From: an uncultured bacterium
GTDB lineage: Bacteria > Spirochaetota > B62-G9 > DRHN01
Length of the DNA stretch: 64,000 bases
NCBI GenBank assembly: GCA_965603595.1
Contig: CBFDDP010000003.1
Span: 1,309-65,308 of the forward strand
Reading direction: 5' to 3'
Shown here: one piece after another, positions 2,206-37,941 of the stretch
Numbering within the stretch: position 1 is the stretch's first letter
Layout: each line of letters begins with the position of its first letter
Translations under genes and position numbers: made by a program
The notes under the pieces: generated by a model
Databases searched by the model: none
The model's input: only the letters and a program-made list of their open reading frames with translations
Told to the model about the DNA's origin: nothing

Positions 2206-2262
2206 TTGACAAGATTTTTAAATTAAATAACTTGTAATAATAAGATTACAGGATAATATGAT
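2206..2262 (+). promoter_or_regulatory. Promoter/operator module, instance 1
   Basis: TTGACAA, then 20 nt, then aCTTGTAAT-aataag-ATTACAGG inverted repeat, then ATAATATGA. There is a TTGTAA-N16-TAATAT sigma70-like promoter. Lies upstream of the gene at 2323. Confidence 0.45.
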
Positions 2263-2322
2263 AATATATAAATGCTCGATGTGAAGTGAGAAGAGACGGC
2301 ACATCAAAGGAGACAGAACAGG

Positions 2323-3168
2323 ATGGCAAAAAAGATTGATCGATTGAGTGTTTGCATTGAAACGATTTTTCCCTACACGGTCCCATATGAAGAGCAGATC
2401 AGGACCTGTGCTGAGCTGGGGTTCAAGGCCTATGAGTTCTGGTATCACGATATGATGCGGGACGGGAAGGGCGGTTGGCTGGAGAAGGAAAAGGCAAAGG
2501 ATCTGGATGTTATACACCGGATGAATGGGGAACTGGACATGAAGCTCGTGACCTTTGCACTCAATTCACCGCACGCCGATCATGGCGGGAACCTGGTGAG
2601 TGACAGAGGTACGGATATGATGTTCAGGGAGCTCGACCGTCTCATCCCCATAGTACAGAAGCTTGGGGTTCTGCAGCTGATTACCTTCGTGGGAAAGGAG
2701 GTGCCGGGAGAGAAGCGCTCCACCCTGTTGAAGAGGATTGTCTCTTCTCTACGGAAGTTGGATAGTAAAGTCGAGGGAACGGGAATCATGCTGACAGTCG
2801 AGCCTCTGAGTCTGCCCAAGTACAAGGGATGTCTTCTGACCACGGTCAAAGAAACGGGCGATTTGCTTCGCGAAGTGGGGGGCAAAAATGTGAAGATGCT
2901 CTACGACGTGTTCCATGTACAGATTATGACGGGGAATATACTCGCCTCCCTGCAGGAGTACATCGAGTATATCGGACACATCCATATCTCGGGAATTCCG
3001 GGACAACACGAACTTGCCGAGGGCGAGCTCAACCTACCACTCATTCTCAAGAAGCTCGACGAAATGGGGTACAGGGGCTATTATGGGCTCGAGTACTATC
3101 CGCTGAAGGAGGTCGTTCCCTCTCTTCAGGAGACGATCGAATACCTGACAGATGTGGCGAGCTTCTAG
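2323..3168 (+). CDS. Sugar phosphate isomerase/epimerase (xylose-isomerase-like TIM barrel; Hyi/OtnI/EryC-like)
   Basis: 281 aa reading ...IHISGIPGQHELAEGELNLPLILKKLDEMGYRGYYGLEYYP, as in hydroxypyruvate-isomerase-like proteins. Confidence 0.7.
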   Translation: MAKKIDRLSVCIETIFPYTVPYEEQIRTCAELGFKAYEFWYHDMMRDGKGGWLEKEKAKDLDVIHRMNGELDMKLVTFALNSPHADHGGNLVSDRGTDMMFRELDRLIPIVQKLGVLQLITFVGKEVPGEKRSTLLKRIVSSLRKLDSKVEGTGIMLTVEPLSLPKYKGCLLTTVKETGDLLREVGGKNVKMLYDVFHVQIMTGNILASLQEYIEYIGHIHISGIPGQHELAEGELNLPLILKKLDEMGYRGYYGLEYYPLKEVVPSLQETIEYLTDVASF

Positions 3169-3231
3169 GTGCAGGTTAAAAGGGTATCAGGCTGAGTGCC
3201 GGATTATAGAGGTATGAGAGCGGAATCAACC

Positions 3232-4467
3232 TCAGCCATCCTTTCCAACGATATGCACGACATTGGTGGTCGCAGATCCCCCGATATTCAGTGTAGCAAT
3301 CCGTTTGGCTCCTGGAACCTGATAGTCTCCCGCCTTCCCGGTAATCTGCAGATAGGCATCGTAGAGCTGCCGTGTTCCGGTGGCACCAACTGGATGTCCT
3401 CCTCCTATGAGTCCTCCCGATGGATTTATGGGGCAGGAACCATCGAATCGGATGGTCCCCTCTTCGATAGCTTTCCAGCCCTCGCCCGGACTGGTGAGGC
3501 CAAAGTGCTCGATGGCTGCATATTCGGTAATGGTAAAGCAGTCATGGGTTTCAATACACGAAATATCCTGCACCCCGCGAATGTGTGCTCTCCTGAAAGC
3601 GTCGGTAAGAGCCTTTCTGGTATGGGGCAGCACGTATTCGTTGTGTCTAGCTTCTTCAGCTTTGTCGTCAAAACGGATGGGAGCTGTTCTGTGGCCCCAC
3701 CCCTGAATGAAAGGGATATGCGCGAGCTTTGAGCCCCGTTTCTTTGCATACTTCTGGGCATAGTCCTGGGAGGCAAGAATAATCGCAGCCCCGCCGTCAG
3801 TGACCTGTGAGCAATCCGATGCGCGGAGTCGTGTGCCAATTGTTCGGTTATAGTCCCCTACGCTGCACGCATGTTTTTTGTTCATGTACCAGCCTCTTGT
3901 TTGGGCTTTTGGATTTCTTTTGGCGTTTTCATAGTTGATGACTGCTATCTCTGCCAGATGCTCGTATTCCACACCGTAGAGTTCTTCGTACACATCGTAC
4001 AGCCGATCGAAAAGCTTGGGGAAGGGGAATTCTATACCCACACATTCCTTTTCATACCACGCTGCTGTGCCTAAATAATTACCACCGATTTTTGAATCTA
4101 CACCTTTCATGAGCTCAATACCCAGAACCACGATGAGATCGTAGATGCCGGCCTCGATTTCTGCCCGAGCCATGAGTGCAGCGATTGAACCGGATGCACA
4201 CGCAGCCTCATGGCGTGCGGTCGGGATACCCCGCAGGATTGAATCATAGTTCAGAGGAAATGAGCCAAGATGGGCCTGCATCATGTAAAGCTCTCCCGCG
4301 AAGTTTCCCACATGGATCGCTTGAATATCCTTTATATCAATTTCCGTGGTGTTTAAAGCCCCATCCATGATTTCATTGATCATTGCCTGAATGCCTTTTC
4401 CCTCTCTAGACCAGTTCCGGGCAAAATCCGTTTGATAGCCCCCAAGAATGTATACCTTTGACGGCAT
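3232..4467 (-). CDS. Thiolase-family protein (SCP-x / acetyl-CoA C-acyltransferase-like)
   Basis: 411 aa with an active-site Cys context AACASGS, plus HDCF and GGLIGGGHPVGATG near the C-terminus. Confidence 0.7.
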   Translation of the reverse strand: MPSKVYILGGYQTDFARNWSREGKGIQAMINEIMDGALNTTEIDIKDIQAIHVGNFAGELYMMQAHLGSFPLNYDSILRGIPTARHEAACASGSIAALMARAEIEAGIYDLIVVLGIELMKGVDSKIGGNYLGTAAWYEKECVGIEFPFPKLFDRLYDVYEELYGVEYEHLAEIAVINYENAKRNPKAQTRGWYMNKKHACSVGDYNRTIGTRLRASDCSQVTDGGAAIILASQDYAQKYAKKRGSKLAHIPFIQGWGHRTAPIRFDDKAEEARHNEYVLPHTRKALTDAFRRAHIRGVQDISCIETHDCFTITEYAAIEHFGLTSPGEGWKAIEEGTIRFDGSCPINPSGGLIGGGHPVGATGTRQLYDAYLQITGKAGDYQVPGAKRIATLNIGGSATTNVVHIVGKDG

Positions 4468-4501
4468 GTCAATTCTCCTTTTTACAGGTTTAAAATTTTT
4501 A

Positions 4502-5788
4502 TTAGTAAGCGATGAAAAACTTCGTCACCTCGGGTATCCGGCACTGCTTTCCTTCATCTGTACCCGCTAACTGATCGGGTATGGTAAATCCTGATTGCTC
4601 CAACAGTTTTATCGTTTCTTTTGGACCACCAAGAAAATCGACCCATGCGGATGGAGGAAGCCAGGAAAAGCCATAGGACATGACCCTGTCGATTCCATGA
4701 ATCCCGTCTTCTACCGGTGTTATTTCTCCGATACGTGTGTAGCTGTACGCGATATACCCCGCTATGAAATGCCTTATTATTGACATTGGTTCAGAAATAT
4801 CATTTTGAATCAGGGAAACAGCTTTTTTATATTCCCCGTCATGGATATGCAGTTTAATTCTCTCGATCGAATCGATCCTGCTGTTCTCCAGATGCTCATG
4901 TTCCAGGCTCGAGGGATTTATGACCAGCTTCTCCTTCCTTTCGTTGTATTGGTAAAATCCTCCCACTGGGCCACTTTTGAGGCCAAACATTTTTTTTTCG
5001 ATCATCCTCTGTACATAATCAGGTATACGGAATGTGTCGTGTCGTTCATCATTGATTTTCTCGTAAATGTTGTCAACAATGGCCTTATGCACATCGAGCC
5101 CAACCAGATCGATTGTTGTAAGGGGTGAAAGTGTCCTTCCAGTAAAAGGACCAAGAAGATAGTCTATTCTTTCAACACCGTACTTTTCTGCGTAAAGAGC
5201 TGCTTCATTCAGGAACTGAAAACCGATCCGGTTCCCCGCAAATCCCGGTTCATTGTAGGTTACAATATTTATCCTTCTCAAAACATTTTCACAGAATTCA
5301 TATACATCTTTCTTGAGTGTCGTAGTATTGCTCGGATGAAAGATGAGTTCATTGGCGAGTAATTTACCGGGGGGATTGAAAAAATGAACACCCATGAAAT
5401 GTGCCCTGAAATCATCACTACACTCCCGGGTCATGTCTTCAATTGACAGGCCCGAAGATATGGTGGATACAATGCTTCCCTTTTTACGGGAGGCGTCCAC
5501 TCTTTGATAGTAATCACGTTTCAGTTCAAGATTTTCAGCCACAGCCTCCATTATCCAGTCACAGTCAGGCAGTTCCTCTTCCAGGGACTCATAGGTTTTC
5601 GGAACGATATAGTCCCTGATCACGTCACTCCGCGCCTGTTTAACCGCATTTTCAATTCCTCGTTTAGCCTTTTCCATGGATCGTGCAAAGTATACACACC
5701 TGATACCTGCCTGAGCAAAAATACCGCCAGAAAGGGAACCCATGGTCCCGTTTGCTCCGAGAACGGACACTTTTTTAATTGCAATCAT
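4502..5788 (-). CDS. 3-hydroxyacyl-CoA dehydrogenase family protein
   Basis: 428 aa. The N-terminal Rossmann start is VSVLGANGTMGSLSGGIFAQAGI, followed by HADH-like C-terminal domains. Reads as an operon with the thiolase gene. Confidence 0.7.
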   Translation of the reverse strand: MIAIKKVSVLGANGTMGSLSGGIFAQAGIRCVYFARSMEKAKRGIENAVKQARSDVIRDYIVPKTYESLEEELPDCDWIMEAVAENLELKRDYYQRVDASRKKGSIVSTISSGLSIEDMTRECSDDFRAHFMGVHFFNPPGKLLANELIFHPSNTTTLKKDVYEFCENVLRRINIVTYNEPGFAGNRIGFQFLNEAALYAEKYGVERIDYLLGPFTGRTLSPLTTIDLVGLDVHKAIVDNIYEKINDERHDTFRIPDYVQRMIEKKMFGLKSGPVGGFYQYNERKEKLVINPSSLEHEHLENSRIDSIERIKLHIHDGEYKKAVSLIQNDISEPMSIIRHFIAGYIAYSYTRIGEITPVEDGIHGIDRVMSYGFSWLPPSAWVDFLGGPKETIKLLEQSGFTIPDQLAGTDEGKQCRIPEVTKFFIAY

Positions 5789-5818
5789 GTATATCCCCTT
5801 AATTGGGAATTGTTTTTC

Positions 5819-5899
5819 TTGACAATTTGTATTTGTATGATAAAATAAGACTTGTAATAATAGGATAATAGGATAATATGATTACATTGATTTTGTCAA
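5819..5899. promoter_or_regulatory. Divergent promoter/operator module, instance 2
   Basis: Plus-strand TTGACAA at 5819, then CTTGTAATAATAGGATAATAGGATAATATGATTAC, then a minus-strand TTGACAA (TTGTCAA on the plus strand) at 5893. Lies between the divergent genes 5788(-) and 5948(+). Confidence 0.45.
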
Positions 5900-5947
5900 T
5901 AGTTTTTCAGAACATAGCAGAGGGGATAATACTATCATAGAGGTTAT

Positions 5948-6709
5948 ATGTCCATGCAAAGACTGAGAGGAAAAACGGCAATTGTCACCGGGTCCAGCTA
6001 TGGCATCGGAAGGGGAATAGCGATTTTTTTTGCACAGGAAGGGGCGAATGTTGTTGTGAACTATTCGAAGTCAGAGGAAAAGGCACAACAGGTTGTTTCT
6101 GAGATTATAGAGGAAGGGTTAACAGCCATTGCCGTCAAGGCCGATGTTTCTCGATCAGATGAAGTAAAGAAGCTGATAGATACATGTGTTCGCAGCTACG
6201 GCAGGCTCGATATTCTGGTCAATAATGCGGGGATACTGCCATTCGGTTCCATTGAGGAGATAACCGATGATATTCTCGACAGGGTGTTCAAGGTGAATTT
6301 TTACGGTACATTCTACTGCTGCCGTGAAGCCGTTCCAATAATGAAGAAACAGAAGTATGGGAAGATCGTAAACATCTCATCTATTGCAGGTCAGCGGGGT
6401 GATCATACCACGGCAGCTTGTTACGGTTCTTCGAAAGGTGCCATGTCGGTGCTCACAAAATCGCTGGCACGGCAGCTCGGCCCATTCGGCATAAACGTCA
6501 ATGCAGTCGCGCCTCATGCAATCATTACCCCGATGATGGACTACTGGGGCGAGGATAAGAGAAATGAGATGATGGAAAAAATTCCAATTCGGCGACTTGG
6601 TACACCCCGTGATGTGGCTGTTGCAGTACTGTTTCTCGTGTCTGACGAGGCGGATTTCATCACCGGCCAGATCATCAATGTAAACGGCGGGTATCTCATG
6701 GATTCCTAG
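5948..6709 (+). CDS. SDR-family oxidoreductase (FabG-like)
   Basis: TGSSYGIGRGIAI glycine motif; YxxxK context; 253 aa. Confidence 0.8.
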   Translation: MSMQRLRGKTAIVTGSSYGIGRGIAIFFAQEGANVVVNYSKSEEKAQQVVSEIIEEGLTAIAVKADVSRSDEVKKLIDTCVRSYGRLDILVNNAGILPFGSIEEITDDILDRVFKVNFYGTFYCCREAVPIMKKQKYGKIVNISSIAGQRGDHTTAACYGSSKGAMSVLTKSLARQLGPFGINVNAVAPHAIITPMMDYWGEDKRNEMMEKIPIRRLGTPRDVAVAVLFLVSDEADFITGQIINVNGGYLMDS

Positions 6710-6737
6710 TGAAGCACAGGTGAGGAGATGGGCAGGT

Positions 6738-7289
6738 ATGAAGAATGAAAGACTGATAAAAGCTGCGTTCAACCGCGGGTTCGAGTACGAAAAAACCTAT
6801 CGCGGTTGCGCGCAGTCTACCGTAGCTGCTATTCAGGACACGCTTGGAATAAGGAACGATTTCGTATTTAAGGCAGCCAGCGGTTTTGCCGCAGGCTGCG
6901 GTATGCTCTGTGATGGAATCTGCGGTGGATATACAGGCGGCATCATGATGATGAGTTTATTCTTCGGACGACGACGTAATAAATTCGATAGTGATCGCGA
7001 AGAGAATTACCATTCTTTTCATATGGCAGGTGCGCTTCATGACAGGTTCATAATCGAGTATGGTACCGTGCTCTGTAAGGCAATACATGAAAAAATTTTC
7101 AGGCGATCATTCGATTTGTGGAATCAAGAGGAGAAAAACCAATTCGAAGAGGCGGGTGCACATATGGACAAGTGCACATCAGTGGTGGCACATGCCTCTG
7201 CGTGGTCCACTGAAATAATCCTGCAGGAGATCAATAAAGAGAAATTGGACGCACAGGATTTTTCATATCTTGTCCATCTGTCTGAATAG
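6738..7289 (+). CDS. C_GCAxxG_C_C family putative redox-active protein (paralog 1)
   Basis: Motifs GCAQSTVAA...GFAAGCG...CGGYTGG with conserved Cys. The ATG at 6738 follows SD GAGGAG with a 10-nt spacer. The GTG at 6720 is rejected. Confidence 0.65.
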   Translation: MKNERLIKAAFNRGFEYEKTYRGCAQSTVAAIQDTLGIRNDFVFKAASGFAAGCGMLCDGICGGYTGGIMMMSLFFGRRRNKFDSDREENYHSFHMAGALHDRFIIEYGTVLCKAIHEKIFRRSFDLWNQEEKNQFEEAGAHMDKCTSVVAHASAWSTEIILQEINKEKLDAQDFSYLVHLSE

Positions 7290-7360
7290 ACCGGCCGATT
7301 ATAAACAGGTGAGCATAACAGATGAGCTGAGGAACATGACCGATGATGTTCTATTTTTTC

Positions 7361-7425
7361 TTGATATAAACCATGCAACCTGTAATATTGTTCGTATAGT
7401 GCGATATGATAACATGTATACAGGG
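7361..7425 (+). promoter_or_regulatory. Candidate autoregulatory site upstream of the GntR gene
   Basis: TTGATA, then CCTGTAAT...GATATGATAACATGTATACAGG. The CCTGTA/TACAGG inverted repeat is related to the operator half-sites. Confidence 0.3.
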
Positions 7426-7453
7426 TGAGTATTGACAGGTATAGGGAGAGTCG

Positions 7454-8242
7454 ATGGAAAAGACGGTGCAATTACAGAATGATTTTTTCATTGATAAGGG
7501 TAGCGCTGTACCGTACTATCATCAGCTGAAAATGTATCTCTTGCGTGAGATCGATTCCGGTAACTGGTCACCGGCGCTGAAACTCCCATCTGAGGCCGAG
7601 TTCTGTGAACACTTCGATATCAGTAGAACTGTTGTACGACAGGCGATCAAGGAACTGCAGAATGCGGGATACCTTTCGACCGAAAAGGGGAAGGGAACTT
7701 TTATCGCCCGTCCAAAAATCATTGAAGGGTTTGTACAGAGCCTCACAGGATTTTATGAGGAGATGGTCAAACGGGGATATAGCGTAACCACGCATATCCT
7801 GAAGCAGGAGCTTGCACCCGCATCACGAAACGTTGCAGAAGCCCTTGAAGTCGATATAAATACACCAGTCATAACACTCAGTCGTCTTCGCAAGCTCAAT
7901 GAAGAGCCTTCTGTGTATGTGACGACATATATACCACAAGGATTATGTCCTGAACTGCTTATAGCCGACCTGGAAAACAAGTCCCTCTACGCCATTCTGG
8001 AAAAGTGCGGGTGTGGTTTGATGATGCACAAGGGGCGTCGGTACATCAGTGTCAGTTTGGCAAATGAATACGAGGCATCACTGTTGAATATCGAAGTGGG
8101 ATCACCCTTGATCGAGCTCGACAGTGTTACCTATCTCAAGGACGGGAGGCCTCTCGAGTACTTTCACGCATTACACCGGGGCGATAGGACACGATTCGAA
8201 GTTGAGCTGATAAAGTTCCAACAACCCGATCAGGGCCAGTAG
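7454..8242 (+). CDS. GntR-family regulator, HutC subfamily (HTH plus UTRA domain)
   Basis: YYHQLKMYLLREIDSGNWSPALKLPSEAEFCEHFDISRTVVRQAIKELQNAGYLSTEKGKGTFIA. Confidence 0.85.
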   Translation: MEKTVQLQNDFFIDKGSAVPYYHQLKMYLLREIDSGNWSPALKLPSEAEFCEHFDISRTVVRQAIKELQNAGYLSTEKGKGTFIARPKIIEGFVQSLTGFYEEMVKRGYSVTTHILKQELAPASRNVAEALEVDINTPVITLSRLRKLNEEPSVYVTTYIPQGLCPELLIADLENKSLYAILEKCGCGLMMHKGRRYISVSLANEYEASLLNIEVGSPLIELDSVTYLKDGRPLEYFHALHRGDRTRFEVELIKFQQPDQGQ

Positions 8243-8278
8243 CGCTTTATCTCAATTGGAAGAGGGATAATTTATATC

Positions 8279-8340
8279 TTGACAAAAGGAGCAATTTGTT
8301 TATAATTGCCTGTAATTACAAGATAATAAGATTATATGAT
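8279..8340 (+). promoter_or_regulatory. Promoter/operator module, instance 3
   Basis: TTGACAA, then cCTGTAATTACAAG (a perfect 14-bp palindrome), then ATAATAAGATTATATGATTAC. Lies upstream of the E1-beta gene. Confidence 0.45.
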
Positions 8341-8382
8341 TACGTTATGTCAACCTATACCTTGTAGGAAAGTTGGGGCATC

Positions 8383-9372
8383 ATGCGAGAGATAACATAT
8401 GTAGAGGCAATCAATGAGGCACTCATTGAAGAGATGGAGCAGGATCAAAGAGTTTTCATATTCGGGGAGGATATCACCGTCGGATATGGCGGTGGAGGTA
8501 TGTTTGGAGCGACGAGGGGGCTCGTTGATCGCTTTGGATTGGATAGGGTCATCGACACGCCCCTTTCCGAGGTCGCGATAACGGGAGCTGCGCTCGGTGC
8601 CGCCATGGTGGGACTCCGGCCAATAGCGGAAATCATGTTCGGTGATTTTATCGCCATCATTATGGATCAACTGGTGAACAATGTCGCAAAGATGAGATGG
8701 GTGTTGAACGATGAGGTGGACGTACCCATCGTGTACCGGACCTCCTATGGGGCAGGAATCGGCGCAGGATTTCACCATTCACAGAGTTTCGAGGCATGGC
8801 TCGCTCACGTGCCCGGATTAAAGGTGGTCATGCCATCGGATCCCGCAGATGCGAAGGGTCTGTTGAAATCGGCCATCCGGGACAATGATCCGGTCATGTT
8901 CATGGAACACAAGCTTTTGTACAAGAGGTTGAGTGGCCCGGTACCGGAGGATGAGTATCTCATTCCTCTGGGTAAGGGTGATATAAAGAAAGAGGGCGAC
9001 GATGTCACCATTATTGCAACCGGAGCGATGGTTCGACGGTCTCTGGAAGCGGCAGAAGCTCTCGAGCAGAGAGGGGTATCTGCTGAGGTAATCGATCCAC
9101 GGACCATACAACCTCTTGATGAAAACCTTATTCTGAAGTCGGTTGAGAAAACCGGGAGGGCTGTCGTGGTTCATGAGGCGCCTGTATTCGGAGGCTACGG
9201 CGGAGAAATTGCAGCCATCCTTGCAGATAAAGCGATCGATTATCTGGATGGTCCTGTAAAGAGGGTTGGGGCTCCGTTCACACCCATACCGAACTGGATC
9301 AAAATGGAGGAATACTACCTTCCCAATGTTGAGAAGATTCTTGATGCGGTGACGGAAGTCATACAGTTTTAG
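8383..9372 (+). CDS. 2-oxoacid dehydrogenase E1 beta subunit (transketolase-like; PdhB/AcoB type)
   Basis: 329 aa with SYGAGIGAGFHHSQS and pyrimidine- and C-terminal transketolase-like domains. Confidence 0.85.
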   Translation: MREITYVEAINEALIEEMEQDQRVFIFGEDITVGYGGGGMFGATRGLVDRFGLDRVIDTPLSEVAITGAALGAAMVGLRPIAEIMFGDFIAIIMDQLVNNVAKMRWVLNDEVDVPIVYRTSYGAGIGAGFHHSQSFEAWLAHVPGLKVVMPSDPADAKGLLKSAIRDNDPVMFMEHKLLYKRLSGPVPEDEYLIPLGKGDIKKEGDDVTIIATGAMVRRSLEAAEALEQRGVSAEVIDPRTIQPLDENLILKSVEKTGRAVVVHEAPVFGGYGGEIAAILADKAIDYLDGPVKRVGAPFTPIPNWIKMEEYYLPNVEKILDAVTEVIQF

Positions 9373-9381
9373 GAGCAATCG

Positions 9382-10614
9382 ATGGTACAGATCAAGATGC
9401 CTGAGGCAGGTTTCAGCATTACAGAGGGAACGGTAATCGAATGGTACAAAGAAGTTGGGGACAGCATCAAAGAGGGAGAAAACGTGGTCTGCGTGGAGAC
9501 TGATAAGCTCGCAGTTGATATCCCGGCTGAAAGGAGTGGTGTGCTCAACGAAGTGAAGTACAGGGCGGGAGAGGTGGTGACTGTTGGTGAAGTGATGGGA
9601 ATCATGCTGGAGGGCGAGGAAAAACCGCCGGAAGCGGGGGATGAGGCTTTACCGAAGGCCGAAGCAGAGATTACCGGGGAATCAGTCCAGGTGAAGGAAA
9701 AAGCTCGGATGGAGGAGGGCAGAAAGATATCGCCTGCTGCCAAGGCTGTTGCACGGTCAAAGGGGATCGACCTTTCTCAGATAGTGACCGGCAGTGGCCC
9801 GCATGGCCGTATAGTGAAGCAGGATGTGATTGATTTTATTACACGGTATGATGTGGAGCGAAAAGAGACATTAGCGGCTCCAGCGGCTACGTCGAAAACG
9901 TCTGTTATGTCGACAGCCGGCGTCAAGCCCGGACAGAGGGTCGAATTTAAGGGCTGGAGAAAGGTCATTGCGGACCGCATGCTGGCCAGCAAGACCGAGA
10001 TACCACACTACACCATGTCCGTTGAGGCGGATGTCACCGAACTTTCGCACTTCATACAGCGTATACGCGAGCTGGAGGGTCTCAGAATCACATACCTCCC
10101 GTTTATGATGAAGGCCCTTGAGCACGGGATTCAGGAAGTGCCTATCGTCAATGCACATTGCGACGGAAAGGGTTTTACCGTTCTTGAAGAAATAAACATG
10201 GGTATAGCTATAGATCTTGGCGAGAAACTTCTTGTACCTGTGATCAAGGATATACGGAGCAAGTCCGTCCTTGAGCTGGTTGATGAGCTCGGGGTCCTGA
10301 TCAAAAAGACTCGGGACGAAAGGCTCGAACCTTCAGATGTGGAGGGTGGCACCATGACTCTCACCAACGTCGGGATGTTTCAAATCCATTCGGCTACGTC
10401 GGTGATACTACAGCCGCAGGTCTCGATCATCTATATGGGCACTGCACGGGAGGCCCCGGGAGTGCGGGACGGAAGGATAGAGATTCGTAAGAAGATGATA
10501 TGTGGTTCAACATTCGACCACAGGGTGGTGAACGGGGCTTCTGGAGGGAGGTTCCTCATGAAGGTAATGGAGTATCTAGAGGATATGGGGAGATTCGTTA
10601 TGCATCTCCGTTAA
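9382..10614 (+). CDS. Dihydrolipoamide acyltransferase E2 with a lipoyl domain
   Basis: The N-terminal lipoyl motif is VETDKLAVDIPAERSG. It also has a subunit-binding domain and a catalytic DHRVVNGASGGRF motif. Confidence 0.85.
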   Translation: MVQIKMPEAGFSITEGTVIEWYKEVGDSIKEGENVVCVETDKLAVDIPAERSGVLNEVKYRAGEVVTVGEVMGIMLEGEEKPPEAGDEALPKAEAEITGESVQVKEKARMEEGRKISPAAKAVARSKGIDLSQIVTGSGPHGRIVKQDVIDFITRYDVERKETLAAPAATSKTSVMSTAGVKPGQRVEFKGWRKVIADRMLASKTEIPHYTMSVEADVTELSHFIQRIRELEGLRITYLPFMMKALEHGIQEVPIVNAHCDGKGFTVLEEINMGIAIDLGEKLLVPVIKDIRSKSVLELVDELGVLIKKTRDERLEPSDVEGGTMTLTNVGMFQIHSATSVILQPQVSIIYMGTAREAPGVRDGRIEIRKKMICGSTFDHRVVNGASGGRFLMKVMEYLEDMGRFVMHLR

Positions 10615-10701
10615 CAGGCAAAGTTCCAGGAATGCGATGAAATCCTCGCAACAGTAACATGTGGAATAAACTGAAATGAAGGCGAAGGGGAGGAAAGGTC
10701 A

Positions 10702-11679: not shown

Positions 11680-11710
11680 AGGCGAATTCCGGAAGGACGT
11701 TTAAAGAGGT

Positions 11711-12505: not shown

Positions 12506-12523
12506 CATTTCATATAAAGGTGT

Positions 12524-14744: not shown

Positions 14745-14877
14745 TGAAGACCTCCGTGAGCGCAGCCGGTATGTACGGAAAGGGGGGATGCAGTCAAAAA
14801 GAAGAAAACTGAAGGCGTAGAATGAGATGTGTTGGGCCCATGGGAATGAGAATAACCCAACATTGAAGGAGGAGGAA

Positions 14878-16380: not shown

Positions 16381-16390
16381 CGTCCCGTCG

Positions 16391-25045: not shown

Positions 25046-25046
25046 A

Positions 25047-25775: not shown

Positions 25776-25793
25776 ATAAGCCCCCTTAATCAA

Positions 25794-27372: not shown

Positions 27373-27501
27373 TGAGGGAGATTCATTTCACTGTTCTTGA
27401 AATGGTATGCGGAAAAGTAATCTCTTTTCCGCATACCTTTTTTTCTGAAATCGTAATATCATGAACGATGCTCGTAAAGGGTTAAACAAGACAATGGGGA
27501 A

Positions 27502-28488: not shown

Positions 28489-28515
28489 TATTGATAGAGC
28501 AGAGGATGCATTTGC

Positions 28516-29466: not shown

Positions 29467-29489
29467 ATATGGGGGAGGTGCTTTAAGTC

Positions 29490-31037
29490 ATGCCAGAGAG
29501 GATGGAAATGGAGAACAGTGCAAATATATTAAATGCTGAAAACATAACGAAATCCTTCCCCGGCGTGCTTGCACTGGACAATGTATCGATCGAGGTGAAA
29601 CAGGGAGAAATCATAGGTATTGCCGGTGAAAACGGAGCTGGAAAATCCACCCTTTTGAATATCATTGCAGGTATCTATCAACCGGATAGTGGTCAGCTTT
29701 TCCTGAGATCTAAATTGTACTCACCATTAAATTATCAACAGGCGAACAGGAATGGTGTTTTCATGGTTTTTCAAGAACAGGGACTTGTACCGAGTCTGTA
29801 TGTCTATGAGAACCTATTCCTGGCCAATGAGGGCAGTTTTATCACAAAGGGCATCCTTAACAAGAAAAGAATGATCAAAGAGGCTGCCGATGCAATGGAG
29901 AGCCTCAACCTGAAAATCGATCCGACGAAACTGACGTGGAATTACTCCTTTCATGAGAGGCAGATGATCGAGATATCAAAGGCGTTTACACTGGCAAAGA
30001 TATTAGAAATTGAAATGCCGCTCATACTGCTGGACGAACCCACATCCGGTTTAAGTGATGCGGAGATTGCAACTCTTTTTGGCAAGGTGAAGGAGTACAG
30101 TGAGAGAGCCTCTTTTCTTTTCATTTCTCACCGACTGTCAGAGTTAATCGAACTGTGCGACAGACTCTATATATTTAAGGATGGGAAGAACATTGAATCA
30201 CTTTCTACCGAGCATACTTCGGAGGCTGATATTCATGAATATATGGTAGGACGAAAGAGGGAAAGCGAATTCTACCGGGAGGACCTTCAAATAAGCAGTA
30301 CTGGAAAAGAAATCTTTGCTGTTAACGGACTGATGAAGGAAGACGCCTTTTCAGATGTCACCTTTGGATTAAATCGAAAGGAGATTCTGGGTATTGGTGG
30401 CATTGTTGGATGTGGAAAGACCGAACTGGGTATCTGTTTAGCGGGGATTGAGAAACTCGATCGTGGCAGTATCACAATCGAAGGGTATGATATACACAAG
30501 GTTACGCTGCAGAATATGATGAAACGGGGCGTTGGATATGTGCCCGGGGATAGAAAGAATGAAGGAATTATTGGCTACCTGCCCGTCAACTGGAATGTCA
30601 CGCTTCCCAGTATACCGGATATCGTATTGAACGGCCTCCCTCTTTTAAATATCAAGAGGGAAAATGAAATAACACGTACCTTTGTCTCGAAGTTCAAGAT
30701 TAAAACGCCGCGTATCACCACAATGTGCTACAGTCTCAGTGGCGGTAATCAACAGAAAGTATTGATGGCAAAATGGGTGGCAAAAAATCTGAAAGTCATA
30801 ATTCTCGACAACCCAACGCGCGGCATTGATGTGGGTGCAAAGGAAGAAATCTACAAAATTTTGAGAGACCTTGTAGAGCAGGGTCTCTCAATCATACTCA
30901 TAACGGACGACCTTCTTGAGCTCATCGGTCTCAGTAATCGGATTGTGATTATGAAAGACGGCATCATCACAAATGAATTCGAATCACCGCCGGAGAACAA
31001 AACAACTGAGAATGAACTGGTTAAATATATGGTCTAG
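29490..31037 (+). CDS. Sugar ABC ATP-binding protein with duplicated ABC domains (RbsA-like)
   Basis: GENGAGKSTLL; LSGGNQQKV; two nucleotide-binding domains. Confidence 0.85.
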   Translation: MPERMEMENSANILNAENITKSFPGVLALDNVSIEVKQGEIIGIAGENGAGKSTLLNIIAGIYQPDSGQLFLRSKLYSPLNYQQANRNGVFMVFQEQGLVPSLYVYENLFLANEGSFITKGILNKKRMIKEAADAMESLNLKIDPTKLTWNYSFHERQMIEISKAFTLAKILEIEMPLILLDEPTSGLSDAEIATLFGKVKEYSERASFLFISHRLSELIELCDRLYIFKDGKNIESLSTEHTSEADIHEYMVGRKRESEFYREDLQISSTGKEIFAVNGLMKEDAFSDVTFGLNRKEILGIGGIVGCGKTELGICLAGIEKLDRGSITIEGYDIHKVTLQNMMKRGVGYVPGDRKNEGIIGYLPVNWNVTLPSIPDIVLNGLPLLNIKRENEITRTFVSKFKIKTPRITTMCYSLSGGNQQKVLMAKWVAKNLKVIILDNPTRGIDVGAKEEIYKILRDLVEQGLSIILITDDLLELIGLSNRIVIMKDGIITNEFESPPENKTTENELVKYMV

Positions 31038-31112
31038 TCATGTATGGTATGCAACACATATCATAAGTATTTTCATAATGGCAAGTCACTTTAAAACGAG
31101 GATTGATTAATC

Positions 31113-31853
31113 ATGTCAAACTCAGGAAAAGAACCATTATATAAAAAAGTAGTACATGAGCTGCGTGACGAAATCACAGGGGGTAAATACGAGGTGGGTG
31201 ATCTGTTACCCACCGAGGATGAACTTATTAAGAGATTTAGCCTCAGCAGGACAACTATCAGGAGTGCAATCGGTGTACTCGAGAAGGAGGGTATTGTCTC
31301 GAGAAAACAGGGTAAGGGCACTATTGTCATGGATCAAAAAATTTCACAGAACTATAATTTCCTGAGTTCGTTTACAGAGACACTTGCAGAGAAAGGACTT
31401 AAAGTTGAGACGAATAATATCTCCGTAGGTCTCCAGCAACCACCTGAGAGTGTCCAACTGGCACTCCGAATACCCGATGACGAAGAGGTTTATCTGGTGC
31501 AACGCACCAAGTTGCTGGAGGGTAAACCGATTTGTTTCATGCGTAATTATTTATTAGCAAGATACGTTCCCCGTCTCGAGGAATACGTTGATGATTTGAA
31601 GCATGCTGGATTGTATGAATTGATTGAGCGTGTTTATTTATTAAATATTGATAGGGCCGTTGATATAATTACTACCTATATGAGCGGTCCGCTTGAATCT
31701 GAAATTCTACATTTTGATGAACCTATCGCATTATTCCGTAACATGAGAACAACATTTCTTGATAATGGCGATGCATTCGAGTATGTCATCTCCATAATAA
31801 GGGGGGATGTATACGAGTATAAAGTGTATTTACAGGGAAGGCCACCGAGATAA
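31113..31853 (+). CDS. GntR/HutC-family regulator (third, divergent copy)
   Basis: LPTEDELIKRFSLSRTTIRSAIGVLEKEGIVSRKQGKGTIV plus a UTRA-like C-terminus. Confidence 0.8.
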   Translation: MSNSGKEPLYKKVVHELRDEITGGKYEVGDLLPTEDELIKRFSLSRTTIRSAIGVLEKEGIVSRKQGKGTIVMDQKISQNYNFLSSFTETLAEKGLKVETNNISVGLQQPPESVQLALRIPDDEEVYLVQRTKLLEGKPICFMRNYLLARYVPRLEEYVDDLKHAGLYELIERVYLLNIDRAVDIITTYMSGPLESEILHFDEPIALFRNMRTTFLDNGDAFEYVISIIRGDVYEYKVYLQGRPPR

Positions 31854-31977
31854 CAGTCCTGGGCTTTGTAGCGGGTAACATGACATTGTCCAAATTTTTT
31901 GATATCTGCGCTGACTATAAAAGTGATGAATCTTTAAAACTAAACTGATCATTTGATGTATTCAGAGGAGATACAGG

Positions 31978-32688
31978 GTGGAATTAAAAGCAATAGATAT
32001 CGCACGATTAATTGATATAAGTGCAGTTCGAACACCACATGGCGAAGCTGAAATCGAGGAACTTGTGATGTGTGCAAAGGAATATCATTTTATAGCCGTT
32101 CATGTTCTTCCATCCTGGGTTTCGTTTCTGAGGGAAAGGATATCTGAGAAGGATGAAATACTAATTGGATCACCTGCGGGCTTTCCTTCCGGAGGACATC
32201 GGACGGATACGAAGGTCCATGAAGTAAAGCAGCTGATCGCTGATGGAGTTCAGGAAATTGATATGATGATGAATGTGGGGATGCTCCGGTCAAAAAACTA
32301 CAGGTATGTCGAGGATGATATTCATGCGGTCATTGAAGCTTCTGGTAAGATACCTGTGAAAGTTATTCTTGAGACCTGTTATTTATCAGGAGATGAGATT
32401 AAAAAAGCGTGTGAGCTGTGCATCAAGGCTGGTGCAGCATATGTGAAAACGTCCTCAGGGTGGACACAGGTGGGAGCCACACTGGAAAATATCCGTCTGA
32501 TTACTACGTTCGTGGGAGACAGAATAAAGGTCAAGGCAGCAGGAGGAGTAAGGGATCTCAAGACAATGATCGAGATGTACAAAATGGGGGTTTCACGGTT
32601 TGGTATAAATGTGCAAGCTTCGATAAAAATTATTGAAGCGTGCAAGAGTCTTCCCGGGGGTGTGGTGAGAGTAGGTACAATGATTTAA
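31978..32688 (+). CDS. deoC: Deoxyribose-phosphate aldolase (DeoC), short form without an N-terminal extension
   Basis: 236 aa reading GGHRTDTKVHEVKQ...AYVKTSSGW...VKAAGGVRD. GTG start 8 nt after GAGGAG. Confidence 0.8.
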   Translation: MELKAIDIARLIDISAVRTPHGEAEIEELVMCAKEYHFIAVHVLPSWVSFLRERISEKDEILIGSPAGFPSGGHRTDTKVHEVKQLIADGVQEIDMMMNVGMLRSKNYRYVEDDIHAVIEASGKIPVKVILETCYLSGDEIKKACELCIKAGAAYVKTSSGWTQVGATLENIRLITTFVGDRIKVKAAGGVRDLKTMIEMYKMGVSRFGINVQASIKIIEACKSLPGGVVRVGTMI

Positions 32689-32725
32689 ACACTTTCCGGG
32701 TATGATATCGAGGGAGTGATACGTT

Positions 32726-33919
32726 ATGGAGAACTTTGAATTTTATAATCCGGTGAGGATCATTTTCGGTTCTGGAGAGGTCTCTAAAACGGGGGTTGAA
32801 GCGTCCAAGATCGGATTAAAAGCGCTGCTGGTGTCATACAAAGAGCACGATTTTCTTAAGGAACTCCTGTCAAAACTCGAGTCTATACTTCAAGATGCGG
32901 GCGTAAAAGTCGTACCGTTCTTTGAGGTCACGGCAAATCCCAGAATGTGCCAGATACACGATGGGGTAGGTCTTTGTAAAGACGAGAGTATCGACCTTAT
33001 CATTGGCGTTGGTGGGGGAAGTGCCATGGATGCTGCAAAAGCCATTGCAGCCGGTGTTTTTTATAAGGGTGACCTCTGGAATATGGTGGTGAGCCGGCAT
33101 GACAACATAACCGCGGTGCCTCCTGAGAAGGCCCTTCCACTTCTCATGATACCAACCCTGCCTGCCACTGGTAGTGAAATGAATTGCTGTGCCGTTGTAA
33201 CCAACGAGAAGACCACGGAAAAATCCTACATCTATGCCCCGTGTCTATTTCCAAAACTATCCATCGCCGATCCATCTTTAACATGTAGTTTACCTCCCTA
33301 CCAGACAGCATGTGGGGCAGCGGATACTATATCCCACGTTTTAGAGTTCTATCTTAACGGTCAGTATGATGCGCCTCTCCAGAATCGTATAGAGGAGGGT
33401 GTGATCCTAACTGTCATGGAGAATGTAAATAAGGCATTGGAAAATCCGAATGATGTTGCTGTCCGAGGACATTTGCAACTGGCCTCAATTGTTGCTTTAA
33501 ACGGGTGGTCGCAGCCTGGCGATGCATGGACCCCCATGCATCAGCTCGGCCATGTACTATCTGCCCGTTATGATCTTGCTCATGGCGTTACGCTCTCGAT
33601 TGTAATGCCTGCATGGATGAAGTGCCTCTACGAGAGAAGGGTTGAAAGCTATGTTCAATTTGCTAACCGTATATTCAGCATTGAAATCGATGGAAAATCG
33701 CAGGGAGAAGTGGCTTTAAAAGGGATTGAACGTTTTGAGAAGTTCCTGAAATCAATCAATGTACCGACACGTCTTTCTGATGTACATATCAAGGCTGATG
33801 TAATCGATGATTTAACAGCTGACGTTGTACGAATCAGCTTTGGAGCGGATGGATTTCTGAGCAGTCGTCCTCCTGTTGATAGAAACAGTGTGCGAAAGGT
33901 GTTCGAAGCAGCATTGTAG
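32726..33919 (+). CDS. Iron-containing alcohol dehydrogenase
   Basis: GVGGGSAMDAAKAIA with Fe-ADH His motifs. Confidence 0.85.
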   Translation: MENFEFYNPVRIIFGSGEVSKTGVEASKIGLKALLVSYKEHDFLKELLSKLESILQDAGVKVVPFFEVTANPRMCQIHDGVGLCKDESIDLIIGVGGGSAMDAAKAIAAGVFYKGDLWNMVVSRHDNITAVPPEKALPLLMIPTLPATGSEMNCCAVVTNEKTTEKSYIYAPCLFPKLSIADPSLTCSLPPYQTACGAADTISHVLEFYLNGQYDAPLQNRIEEGVILTVMENVNKALENPNDVAVRGHLQLASIVALNGWSQPGDAWTPMHQLGHVLSARYDLAHGVTLSIVMPAWMKCLYERRVESYVQFANRIFSIEIDGKSQGEVALKGIERFEKFLKSINVPTRLSDVHIKADVIDDLTADVVRISFGADGFLSSRPPVDRNSVRKVFEAAL

Positions 33920-33960
33920 GGGATCAGTAGACTCTACTCAGTAATGAGAAAGCAGTACAA

Positions 33961-35076
33961 ATAGGCAATTACATTATCGCATATGATCTCGGTACGGGCG
34001 GCAATAAGGCTTCACTGTATAACAGAGAGGGGGAGTGTATCAAGACTACCTTTGTTCCCTATGAGACGCTGTATCCCGTTGCGGGCTGGCATGAACAGAG
34101 ACCGACCGATTGGTGGGATGCCGTTGTCGAATCCACGCATACTCTTCTCTCATCACCGGACGTATCGCATGATGATGTTGAATGCCTTGCTCTCTCTGGG
34201 CAGAGTCTTGGGGTAGTTCCCATTGACAAACATGGGAATCTGCTTCGTGAGACGGTTCCTATCTGGTCTGATACGCGCACTGCAAAGCAGACGGATGAGT
34301 TCTTTTCTGAGATCGACCCCACTGAATGGTACATGACGACGGGCAATGATTCGAGGCTGATGGAGGCGAGTGGTCTCCCACCAACGTTGTTCCCAGATAT
34401 TGTACCCTCCACGTATATAATCGGTGAAATAGCAAAGGACGTATCAGAAGTCATAGGATTATCAAATAGAGTAAAGGTGGTTTGTGGTGGTGTTGACAAT
34501 TCCTGTATGGCTTTGGGTGCGGGGAACATAACAGAGGGCAGGCTCTACCTCTCCCTGGGCTCTTCAGCGTGGATCGCAGTCTCATCCCACGGACCAATTG
34601 TAGATGTTAAAATTAAACCCTTTGTCTTTACCCATGTTATTCCAGAGATGTTTACCTCTGCTACCGCAATTTTTTCTGCAGGTAATTCCTTGAAGTGGGT
34701 GAGGGATACACTCTGTAAGGATATAAAAGAGGTGGCTGAAAGAGAGAACAGGGATCCATATGAAATGATGCCTATAACTGCAGAGGAATCGCCGATTGGA
34801 GCACACAAGCTCATTTTTAATCCCAGCCTTGCAGGAGGATCGGCGGCTCACTTGAGTCCTCAGATTCAGGGGGCATTTCTCGGCATTGATCTTTCGCACA
34901 CTCAGGCCGATGTGATAAGCTGTTGCAGAAGTGGGACGGAGGCGATACGGCGGATGTTAAAGATGCAGATAAGCTTGCAGTACTTGCAGACAAGGGGATA
35001 TTTGGTCCGATTAAGAAGCTCCGAACGGAGGATATACTCTGCAATAATGCCGAGGCTCTGCGATTTGGCGCCGTAG
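33961..35076 (+). pseudogene. Decayed FGGY carbohydrate kinase
   Basis: In-frame FGGY N-terminus IGNYIIAYDLGTGG, but no ATG, GTG or TTG anywhere in the 5' ~125 codons; the initiator position reads ATA. An internal deletion of about 55 aa is apparent against the intact paralog at 62328. The C-terminus is lost after HTQADVI. Confidence 0.6.
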
Positions 35077-36204: not shown

Positions 36205-36242
36205 GTTTATTTCCTCTTCATTGTGAAATTGAACCGCACGTG

Positions 36243-37760
36243 TTACACGGCCTCCCTCTTCGTCCGTCCAAAGGCCGCGTTCAGTATCATATCCGAAGTC
36301 AGGCCTTCAGTAGTAAACTCCCCGGATATACTCCCTTCATGCATGACGTATATGCGATCGCATATCTTCATGAGCTCCGGAATTTCAGAAGACACTACAA
36401 GAATCGCCGCCCCCTGCTGTGCCAGGTTCTTCATGAGGTTGTGCACTTCCTGTTTCGCCCCCACATCAATTCCTCTCGTGGGCTCATCGAATAGGAGCAC
36501 TTCGCACTCGGCACACAGCCACCGGGCGATGATAACTTTCTGCTGATTTCCGCCGCTCAAAAACATGACCAGCTGCTTGCGACCGGGAGTTTTTATATCC
36601 AGTTTTTGAATAAAATTGAGAACCCGTTTCAGTATCTTTCCTTTTTCCAGAATCCCCGCTGTGGACACCGAATCAAGGGACGAGAGGATGATGTTCTCGT
36701 CCACGGGTCGGCACATCACAAGACCGTCGGCCTTACGGTCTTCAGGGAGAAGTGCGATTTTCCGATCGAGGGCGTGTTTCGGTTCTCTTATCCTGATATT
36801 TTCTCCCTTGAGGAATACCGACCCTTCTTTTACCCGATCCGCTCCAAAGATCGTTCGAAGCACCTCCGTTCTGCCGGAGCCCACCAGGCCGGCAAGCCCG
36901 ACAATCTCTCCCTCACGTACGTTGAGGCTCACATTTCTGAACTTCTCACCTGTCAATTCTTCGATCCTTAAAACCTCCGGACCTATTTTCCGTCCGGTGT
37001 CCAGTCGTGTTTCCTCTATCTTTCTCCCCACCATCATTTCAACTAGATCAGCGGTACTCACCTCGTCGGCGTTTTTTGTGTCCACGTACTGACCGTTTCT
37101 CAATACAGTGATCCGGGTACCGATCGTAAAAACCTCCTCAAGCCGGTGAGAAATGTATATGATTCCTACACCGTCAGATTTGAGTCTCTTGATAAGTACA
37201 AAGAGTTCCTGTATTTCGTTCGGGGTGAGTGCAGCCGTTGGCTCATCGAAGATGCAGATCTTCGACTGTACGGAGAAAGTCTTGGCAATCTCAACCATCT
37301 GCTTCTGAGCGATTCCAAGCTTGTGTATGATAATTTTAGGGTCTATATCAATCTCGAGGGAATTCAGCAGTTCCTTGGCCTCCCTGTTCATCTTCGGTTT
37401 GTCGATTGTACGTAGGAGGCCTCTTTTTAGGGGCTGTCGTCCAAGAAAGATGTTCTCGGCTACACTCAAGTAGGGTATGAGGTTGAACTCCTGATAGACC
37501 GTTGCGATTCCCAGTTCCTGCGCATGACGGGGGTTGTGTATCTCCAACTCATTTCCATCCATGATTATGGTGCCTGAATCCTTTTTATATGCTCCAGAAA
37601 TTATTTTGATGAGGGTTGACTTCCCCGCTCCGTTTTCACCAATCAGGACATGTGCCTCTCCTTGTCTGAGATTGAAATCGACTCTATCGAGGGCGAGAAC
37701 ACCGGGAAAGGTTTTCGTAATTCCCTTGAGTTCCATGATTACGTCGTTGGTATTCGCCAC
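36243..37760 (-). CDS. Sugar ABC ATP-binding protein with duplicated ABC domains
   Basis: GENGAGKSTLIK; LSGGNQQKV; 505 aa. Confidence 0.85.
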   Translation of the reverse strand: MANTNDVIMELKGITKTFPGVLALDRVDFNLRQGEAHVLIGENGAGKSTLIKIISGAYKKDSGTIIMDGNELEIHNPRHAQELGIATVYQEFNLIPYLSVAENIFLGRQPLKRGLLRTIDKPKMNREAKELLNSLEIDIDPKIIIHKLGIAQKQMVEIAKTFSVQSKICIFDEPTAALTPNEIQELFVLIKRLKSDGVGIIYISHRLEEVFTIGTRITVLRNGQYVDTKNADEVSTADLVEMMVGRKIEETRLDTGRKIGPEVLRIEELTGEKFRNVSLNVREGEIVGLAGLVGSGRTEVLRTIFGADRVKEGSVFLKGENIRIREPKHALDRKIALLPEDRKADGLVMCRPVDENIILSSLDSVSTAGILEKGKILKRVLNFIQKLDIKTPGRKQLVMFLSGGNQQKVIIARWLCAECEVLLFDEPTRGIDVGAKQEVHNLMKNLAQQGAAILVVSSEIPELMKICDRIYVMHEGSISGEFTTEGLTSDMILNAAFGRTKREAV

Positions 37761-37833
37761 CTACCCCTCCTTCATCTAACCATAGCATACACGATTTCTT
37801 GTAAAATTATGAGATAAAAATGAAAAAAAGTTC

Positions 37834-37941
37834 TTGACAATACGTGACGATCTGGTAAAATAACTTGTTATTACAAGATTATATAATAACAGGATAATAT
37901 GAGCACAATACTTTGTAGCAAATATAACATAGTTTGTCAAT
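37834..37941. promoter_or_regulatory. Divergent promoter/operator module, instance 4
   Basis: Plus-strand TTGACAA at 37834, then CTTGTTATTACAAG...ATAACAGGATAATATGA, then a minus-strand TTGACAA at 37935-37941. Lies between 37760(-) and 38089(+). Confidence 0.45.

Follow-up and report, generated by a model that had tools for sequence, protein, structure and literature searches.

Arrays of 8-bp-phased half-sites at four promoters as the probable operators of HutC-subfamily repressors in an uncultured Spirochaetota bacterium

Regulators of the HutC subfamily of the GntR family consist of an N-terminal GntR winged helix-turn-helix (wHTH) and a C-terminal UTRA domain of chorismate-lyase fold. They follow a common logic, with the repressor bound to its operator when no inducer is present and released upon ligand binding to the UTRA domain. 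The published operator consensus of the subfamily is GT-N4-AC (in full, NyGT-N4-ACNy), and that of HutC itself is TGTA-N2-TACA; direct-repeat exceptions are found in FarR/MngR (TGTATTAWTT) and NagQ (TGGTATT). The structure of NagR with DNA features base contacts at −4 and −5, where G is read by Arg48 and Arg38, respectively, and at −7, which is contacted by Gly69 of the wing. HutC of Pseudomonas protects 51–68 bp of promoter DNA and forms dimer, tetramer and hexamer complexes on it. On (GGTATA)3, a set of three direct repeats 8–9 bp apart, Escherichia coli NanR assembles cooperatively as three dimers that cover the promoter. A survey of GntR motifs (Suvorova et al. 2015) found many palindromes accompanied by a weaker extra half-site 7–12 nt from the dyad, and left the function of these boxes open. 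Here, a comparable element is described in 64,000 nt of DNA (hereafter, the window) from an uncultured bacterium of the Spirochaetota lineage B62-G9 (assembly GCA_965603595.1, contig CBFDDP010000003.1). The window carries four promoter-associated arrays of phased half-sites, S1–S4, and two genes for HutC-subfamily regulators, GntR1 and GntR2. Judging from the sequence, the four elements are, with good confidence, operator arrays for these cluster-encoded repressors. This reading draws on the architecture of the sequence, its conservation, the co-occurrence of site and regulator and the match to the known contact positions of the HutC family.

All four sites are located on the forward strand, each directly 3′ of a strong predicted sigma-70-type promoter, in the four intergenic regions where a first-pass annotation, made from the letters alone, had placed one common composite element. 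Written in 8-nt units, S1 (2231–2266; 4.5 units) reads CTTGTAAT AATAAGAT TACAGGAT AATATGAT AATA and lies 5′ of a gene for a Hyi-like isomerase (2323–3168). S2 (5851–5886), common to two facing promoters, reads CTTGTAAT AATAGGAT AATAGGAT AATATGAT TACA. S3 (8309–8344) reads CCTGTAAT TACAAGAT AATAAGAT TATATGAT TACG and holds the best palindrome of the window, cTGTAATTACAag. S4 (37864–37907) is a variant with one extra unit, five in all, and reads CTTGTTAT TACAAGAT TATATAAT AACAGGAT AATATGAG CACA, where the third unit, TATATAAT, is degenerate. When the four copies are aligned, one inverted arm, CyTGTwAT, comes first; the direct half-site unit wAyAnGAT then occurs three times, or four times at S4, in strict 8-bp register, and the array closes with TAyA. 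The length of the array is 36–44 bp. Units 1 and 2 represent the classic HutC palindrome TGTA-N2-TACA, and the GT-N4-AC spacing is present in A/T-rich surroundings as TGTAATTACA at S3 and TGTTATTACA at S4; in both S1 and S2, the right palindrome arm has T instead of C.

This layout differs from the one first proposed, in which a perfect or split 14-bp palindrome was followed by a separate conserved box. No perfect copy of CTTGTAATTACAAG exists in the window (one mismatch each at S3 and S4, two at S1 and three at S2), and the distance from TTGACAA to the palindrome is 18–25 nt rather than 20–26 nt. The proposed box, GGATAATATGA, is exact at S1, S2 and S4 but reads AGATTATATGA at S3. Palindrome and box are parts of a single phased array of 36–44 bp with steps of 8 nt. 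Two further candidate sites, CTTGTTATTACATT at 27604 and CTTGAAATTACCCG at 11196, were discarded as intragenic sequences with three mismatches, found as often as expected by chance.

The core TGTAATTACA is an exact instance of the TGTA-N2-TACA motif of Pseudomonas HutC at Phut; HutC likewise regulates divergent promoters, and its occupancy reaches well beyond the palindrome. However, no strict 8-bp half-site repeat is reported to underlie the extended occupancy of HutC, its effector is urocanate and its pathway is histidine use, and GntR1 scores 103 bits against a HutC equivalog cut-off of 220. The best precedent for the occupancy of a phased direct-repeat array is NanR; where its operator has three direct repeats 8–9 bp apart across the promoter, the arrays described here have three to four wAyAnGAT units spaced by exactly 8 bp. 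The NanR operator lacks a palindromic arm, and NanR belongs to the FadR subfamily (FCD domain), in contrast to the UTRA proteins of the window; the arrays described here are therefore not members of the NanR group, though they may work alike. About 17–21 residues precede the wHTH in GntR1 and GntR2, fewer than the 32 of NanR, whose long N-terminal extension mediates cooperativity between dimers, and only an IDKxS motif is kept among them. Relative to the additional boxes of Suvorova et al. (2015), the first extra unit is placed similarly, about 11 nt from the dyad, but the units here number two to four, occur on one side only in exact 8-bp phase, and are as conserved as the palindrome or more so, not weaker.

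Related loci were gathered via homologues of GntR1 in assemblies of uncultured Spirochaetota. The best match of the regulator among the GTDB representative genomes searched has 79% identity. In loci L001–L010 and L019, the regulator is 66–79% identical and the genes are arranged as thiolase–HADH diverging from SDR–(GCAxxG)–GntR–E1b–E2–E1a–ABC, with the same array in the same intergenic regions. The array occupies syntenic positions in more than 13 related contigs of uncultured Spirochaetota, and the site was seen in all Spirochaetota loci that include the upstream region. Twenty-one sites from 13 loci were aligned without gaps over 36 nt and yielded the consensus CtTGTaAT wACArGAT AATArGAT AATATGAT TAyA. 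About 24 positions are invariant or nearly so, the invariant ones being C1, T3, T5, A7, A10, G14-A15, A18, A20, G22-A23-T24, A26, A28-T29-G30, T32 and A34. The spacers between −35 and −10 and the flanks are diverged or unrelated between relatives. The exact 8-bp unit spacing is observed in the 21 ungapped sites and in three five-unit sites. The 21-site profile is most symmetric about position 7.5, while secondary axes at 23.5 and 27.5 are weak. The idea of a second palindrome within the array was dropped, these weak axes being explained by AT-richness, and, in the absence of a strong second axis, the downstream part is best called direct repeats.

The individual sites have counterparts in relatives. 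The array of S2 is kept in L001b, L002a, L003a, L005b, L006, L008, L009, L010, L019 and L081b, and internal sites equivalent to S3 are present in L003b, L004b, L002b and L112. The position of the internal promoter is before E1beta in the window, L003 and L004, and before the second GntR and ABC genes in L002; this promoter is absent in L001, L005 and L006. S4 was checked apart, through homologues of the binding protein encoded next to it. Its five-unit layout occurs in the same place in L194 (binding protein 90% identical) and L196 (83%). In L194, the large operon ends right beside the Rbs divergon, in support of a functional link between the two. One relative, L004, additionally contains a palindrome-only site, CTTGTAATTACGGGAT (2039–2074; 22.6 bits), between two divergent SDR-like genes with no counterpart in the window, which hints at extra members of the regulon in some relatives.

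The specificity of the element was assessed with a 36-nt weight matrix built from 18 sites of other genomes only, as the inclusion of the window's own four sites would have made the matrix circular. The scores of S2 (58.3 bits), S1 (52.6 bits), S3 (51.2 bits) and S4 (35.7 bits) are the four highest in the 64-kb window, and S4 reaches 49.1 bits when its third unit is deleted. The next independent position has −1.1 bits, a gap of 37 bits to S4. The site orthologous to S1 in L001 (L001a) scores 48.9 bits. The maximum was −0.2 bits in 40 Markov shuffles of the window and 12.4 bits in 40 AT-rich nulls of 64 kb each with intergenic composition, and no match of at least 18 bits was found in 983 kb of loci from unrelated bacteria. 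At the scale examined by the matrix scan, the site is thus not the generic AT-rich promoter feature before unrelated genes that the first-pass annotation had considered as the case against itself. A scan of metagenomes with the pattern WAYANGATWAYANGATWATATGA, whose N positions admit the 8-bp microsatellites (TATATGAT)n and (AATATGAT)n, says little on the size of the regulon; true sites among the matches listed are those of L081 (two), L112 and L149. The only occurrences of TGTAATTACA found in a literature search on the exact motif are the E. coli relBE operator and unrelated eukaryotic sequences, and GATAATATGATTA had no match. In metagenome contigs (L071–L150), (TATATGAT)n and (AATATGAT)n are widespread microsatellites, often at contig ends; they resemble the units of the operator and are unrelated to it.

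GntR1 (7454–8242, forward strand; PF00392 E = 2e-15, PF07702 E = 2e-37) and its paralogue GntR2 (11711–12505, forward strand, inside the operon controlled from S3; PF00392 E = 8e-16, PF07702 E = 1e-38) both possess the N-terminal wHTH and the C-terminal UTRA domain and belong to the HutC subfamily. They had been called near-identical; in fact, the two proteins are 63% identical, and only the helix-turn-helix and the wing are nearly the same. Both stay below every NCBIfam equivalog cut-off. Among solved structures, those of NagR (YvoA) from Bacillus subtilis (E = 2e-35, with a full-length alignment covering residues 13–248) and DasR from Streptomyces (E = 7e-31) are closest to GntR1 and share its wHTH and UTRA architecture. 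These proteins are repressors with operators overlapping promoters of sugar catabolic or transport genes, similar to the sites described here, but the sequence identity of GntR1 to NagR is low.

The contacts known for NagR correspond to the conserved positions of the array. In GntR1, R58 aligns with Arg48 in the recognition helix of NagR, and G79 with the wing residue Gly69; both residues are kept in GntR2 and are invariant in 22 homologues. The bases read by them in NagR are conserved in turn, as the positions at ±7 from the dyad (C1/G14) are invariant in 21 of 21 sites and those at ±4 (G4/C11) are conserved. The residue equivalent to Arg38 is Ala or Thr, which matches the presence of T, not G, at operator position −5. 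The dre sites differ in this respect, having GG at −5/−4, and also in being single near-palindromes of 16–19 bp, whereas the palindrome here is trailed by two to four phased direct half-sites. In the downstream units, the ‘wing’ G is retained (G22 and G30 are invariant), and T is usual in place of the C/G pair contacted by Arg. With DNA-reading residues almost as in GntR1, GntR2 probably also reads the arrays.

The association of site and regulator extends beyond Spirochaetota. Distant orthologues (38–50% identity) from Deinococcota, Actinomycetota and Bacillota, with loci in Trueperaceae, Syntrophomonadaceae and several Actinomycetota, carry palindromes of the form (AT)CyTGTnATkACArG(AT). The palindrome is located 40–100 bp 5′ of the regulator's own gene in L014, L017 and L018, and beside RbsA or FGGY-kinase genes in L013, L029, L015 and L020. 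The chance expectation for this pattern is about 0.0015 matches per 100-bp target. Phased units follow the palindrome in L013 and L029 (CTTGTCAT GACAAGAT TACATGAT) and in L014 (CTTGTAAT GACAGGAT AACATAAT). Site and regulator therefore co-occur across genomes, and the early proposal of a promoter-operator module shared by a local regulon under cluster-encoded GntR/HutC proteins is supported by comparative evidence.

The history of the regulators is a separate matter. In L002, the two regulator copies (8879–9664 and 13164–13949) are 78% identical to each other, and GntR2 of the window is 54–64% identical to every other copy. This suggests that the paralogues present in more than one genome have different histories, either by repeated duplication or by fast evolution of GntR2.

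Each array adjoins a predicted promoter. The promoter of S1 (2206–2233, forward strand) has a −35 TTGACA at 2206–2211, a 16-nt spacer and a weak −10 TAACTT at 2228–2233, which overlaps the operator; its orthologue in L001a carries a proper TAAAAT −10. The rightward promoter of S2 (5819–5846, forward strand) features TTGACA, a 16-nt spacer and TAAAAT with an upstream TG (11/12 consensus match), and the leftward one (5870–5899, reverse strand) has TTGACA at 5899–5894, an 18-nt spacer and TATCCT at 5875–5870 (10/12 match). The promoter of S3 (8279–8306, forward strand) matches the consensus at 12/12 positions, with TTGACA, 16 nt and TATAAT. In the consensus scan of window positions 1–20000, the promoters of S3 and S2 are the two best sigma-70-like matches. 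At S4, the rightward promoter (37834–37861, forward strand) consists of TTGACA, 16 nt and TAAAAT with an upstream TG, and a leftward candidate (37912–37940, reverse strand) with TTGACA at 37940–37935, a 17-nt spacer and a weak putative −10, TACAAA, at 37917–37912 may face it. The −35 context at each of the four rightward sites is cTTGACA.

The array begins 2–4 nt past the −10, at about +1 of the predicted rightward promoters, or overlaps the −10 (S1, L008 and L010), so that the site abuts or overlaps the predicted core promoter. At S2, the leftward −10 falls within the array, and at S4, the array spans about +8 to +50 of the predicted leftward transcript. A second TTGACAA on the opposite strand, noticed earlier at the divergent sites, is indeed present at S2 (5899–5893) and S4 (37940–37934), and with the predicted hexamers the promoters at both sites flank the operator face to face; the reverse TGTCAA at S2 is kept in orthologues. 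As for TTGACAA being part of the shared module, it turned out to be a generic −35 element, the seventh base of which varies in orthologues.

Several minor features accompany the promoters. Most sites, in the window (2195–2205, 5808–5818 and 37825–37833) as well as in relatives, have a T-run, tttttTCTTGACA, directly 5′ of the −35, possibly an UP-element-like promoter feature. At S3, as at the divergent sites, an opposite-strand TTGACA (8349–8354, reverse strand) is located just past the array. It lacks both a leftward gene and a −10 at the proper distance, a perfect TATAAT being only 11 nt off, and may either be left over from a divergent-type ancestor or form an antisense promoter directed towards GntR1. 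A possible weak internal promoter 5′ of GntR1 (7361–7414, forward strand) comprises TTGATA, 16 nt and TAATAT (9/12 match). It is accompanied by a degenerate site, with CCTGTAAT at 7379 and GATATGAT 24 nt further on in the register of units 1 and 4. The independent matrix gives this candidate fifth site −3.0 bits, a background level, and it is kept as a possibility only; at the equivalent place, L009 has a site of 18.6 bits.

With the four arrays read as operators of the cluster-encoded repressors, we infer binding, its stoichiometry, repression and the inducer as follows. Without inducer, a repressor dimer would bind the palindrome and further dimers would follow along the phased half-sites, covering about 36–44 bp across the transcription start. 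The bound array would block RNA polymerase at the rightward promoter and, at both divergent sites, would shut the facing promoter as well, at S2 via its −10 and at S4 via the early transcribed region. A pathway intermediate, probably a sugar or sugar phosphate, would then bind the UTRA domain and separate the DNA-binding domains, releasing all six transcription units. Both regulators are encoded inside regulated operons, as had been pointed out in the first-pass annotation, GntR1 in the rightward operon of S2 and GntR2 in the operon of S3; hence, the circuit would be subject to negative autoregulation.

A circuit of this kind is an ordinary local on/off switch of the standard HutC repressor-operator type, rather than a new kind of system, and is unusual only in the strict phasing and one-sidedness of its half-site array. 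The analysis provides an operator model and a predicted regulon of six transcription units for HutC-type regulators of an orthologous group, found in uncultured Spirochaetota, that is so far uncharacterised. The regulon links the Hyi-like isomerase with the HADH and thiolase-like pair, an SDR, the two C_GCAxxG proteins, the thiamine-dependent E1-E2-E1 complex and a pair of ABC importers. Their genes are thereby marked as one sugar or polyol catabolic unit, which aids pathway discovery. The array is also a clean and strongly conserved case of phased extra half-sites by a GntR palindrome and bears on the question left by the GntR motif survey.

Several observations weigh against this assignment. 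The loci used for conservation were mostly chosen via the GntR gene, and the co-occurrence within Spirochaetota is partly by construction; the matrix scan covered 64 kb of this genome. The direct units are better conserved than the left palindrome arm, G4 being lost in 6 of 21 sites, and such stronger conservation is not predicted by a simple palindrome-nucleated model. With a spacing of 8 bp, neighbouring half-sites point to different sides of the helix, an awkward arrangement for a symmetric dimer. Locus L081 contains two full sites and an RpiR gene nearby, with no GntR gene within its 12 kb, so another regulator is possible for part of the array. To our knowledge, no HutC-subfamily protein has been shown to bind an array of this type.

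A mode of recognition undescribed for the HutC subfamily can be proposed tentatively, as a conjecture that is rather less likely to hold than to fail. The repressor might read the palindrome arm together with the one-sided set of three to four phased half-sites as a spiralling chain of domains or dimers over about 40 bp, with the ‘wing’ guanine (G14, G22, G30) as a recurring anchor, and each operon might be tuned by whether its array has four units or five. In a variant of this proposal, the two paralogues, each with its own effector, would share the array and produce two-input control. If true, the chain would be an extreme and experimentally tractable case of the unexplained ‘additional half-site boxes’ by GntR-family palindromes.

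The alternative that survives best, although it is unlikely, is a composite site, with a GntR dimer on the palindrome (units 1–2) only and another factor on GATAATAnGATAATATGATTAyA. Candidates for the latter are the second GntR paralogue in another mode, an RpiR-family regulator encoded at 41044–41919 and a small ribbon-helix-helix protein reading 8-bp tandem boxes. The better conservation of the downstream units relative to the left palindrome arm fits such a division, and at S4 and its orthologues the halves are parted by one extra degenerate 8-bp unit, like separable sub-sites. Distant GntR orthologues, however, already have one to two phased units after the palindrome (L013, L029 and L014), which ties the units to the GntR protein, and L003 has full arrays with a single GntR in 14.6 kb. 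The RpiR candidate is favored by L081, where an RpiR protein 78% identical to that of the window is encoded beside a full site on a contig with no GntR gene; against it, the upstream region of the window's RpiR gene has no matrix match, and no RpiR gene was found in L001–L010. For these reasons, RpiR was rejected as the binding protein. Tandem 8-bp boxes are the classic layout of the MetJ operator, and TTGTAATTACAA is also the core of the operator of E. coli RelB, a ribbon-helix-helix protein, but no ribbon-helix-helix domain was detected among about 37 annotated open reading frames (ORFs) of at least 80 aa, smaller ORFs not having been screened.

An RNA-level element of the 5′ leader, either a protein-binding RNA or an attenuator encoded by the block just 3′ of the predicted start, is very improbable. 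The array begins at about +1 and would be transcribed from all four rightward promoters, and its orientation relative to the rightward promoter is fixed at all sites, both in favor of this explanation. However, no Rfam family match was found anywhere in the window, and the leaders of S2, S3 and S4 fold no better than shuffled sequences (z = +0.55 to +0.94); the exception, S1 (z = −2.3), is due to a hairpin outside the conserved block. The arms show no compensatory changes, as C11 is retained when position 4 is A, and G4 when position 11 is T. In L008 and L010, the array overlaps the −10 and is hence partly untranscribed, and at divergent sites it overlaps the −10 of the facing promoter, as fits a DNA site. 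A known RNA element or riboswitch was accordingly rejected, with no Rfam match, folding at shuffle level at S2–S4 and no covariation.

The remaining explanation, that the block is a copied promoter cassette, a slippage-born AT-rich 8-bp microsatellite or a stack of −10-like hexamers (GATAAT) with no dedicated function, is equally implausible. In its favor, metagenomes commonly contain microsatellites of the types (TATATGAT)n and (AATATGAT)n, exactly one 8-bp unit distinguishes S4 from the other sites, and the reverse −10 of S2 lies inside the array. However, the units are position-specific and not homogenised (unit 2 wACArGAT, unit 3 AATArGAT, unit 4 AATATGAT), their identities are kept in at least 13 genomes with proteins only 60–90% identical and unrelated adjacent spacers, conservation is equal at the non-divergent S1 and S3, the microsatellite matches lack unit 1 and reach at most 43 bits against 48–61 bits for true four-unit sites, and no terminal repeats or common flanks were found between the four copies.

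The gene identities proposed from the sequence were confirmed by Pfam. Upstream of S1, the gene of a deoC-like aldolase ends at 2138 and is followed by an intrinsic terminator (2164–2204, forward strand) with a perfect stem of 8 bp, formed by the fully (100%) complementary inverted repeat 2164–2171/2190–2197, and a T-run (cttttttc), which isolates the S1 promoter from upstream transcription. S1 precedes the gene of the Hyi-like TIM-barrel isomerase. The rightward operon of S2 encodes SDR (5948), C_GCAxxG (6720) and, as its last gene, GntR1 (7454), and the leftward one consists of the HADH gene (5788–4502) and the thiolase-like gene (4467–3232). The operon of S3 includes genes for E1beta, E2, E1alpha, GntR2, two MalK-type ATPases, a binding protein, two permeases and Fe-ADH; a GDSL gene is possibly driven by the same promoter. 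S4 is followed rightward by genes for an Rbs-type binding protein (38089) and the second C_GCAxxG protein (39143), and leftward by RbsA (37760–36243) and RbsC (36204–35215). In relatives L005a and L081a, the same site is located 5′ of an operon for a Zn-dependent polyol-type dehydrogenase and a Hyi-like protein, and FGGY kinases, class II and DeoC aldolases and a RhaA-like isomerase are encoded near sites in relatives. These genes indicate a sugar, deoxy-sugar or polyol catabolic island.

The two C_GCAxxG_C_C proteins (6720–7289 and 39143–39829), putatively redox-active, are encoded one in each of two regulated operons. Homologues keep this position in L002, L007–L009, L194 and L196, and the family appears to be a consistent part of the pathway. 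The genes of the thiamine-dependent dehydrogenase (8383–11679) are arranged in the unusual order E1beta, E2, E1alpha, which is kept in L002, L003, L004 and L006. A gene for E3 (dihydrolipoamide dehydrogenase) was not identified among the annotated cluster genes.

About 15 kb (20162–35076) separate the GDSL gene from RbsC in the window, while in the close relative L194 the GDSL gene (6311–6940) and RbsC (7119–8099) are adjacent. The G+C content of this segment is 0.43 versus about 0.50, and it contains an ABC-2 exporter and two large ORFs together with a second Rbs-type transporter, DeoC-like aldolase and Fe-ADH. The segment looks like an insertion into the regulon. At its end, an FGGY-kinase ORF (34333–35076) of only 247 aa matches the last 57 positions of FGGY_N and part of FGGY_C, with only about 410 nt between it and the preceding Fe-ADH gene; this ORF is probably a truncated gene remnant.

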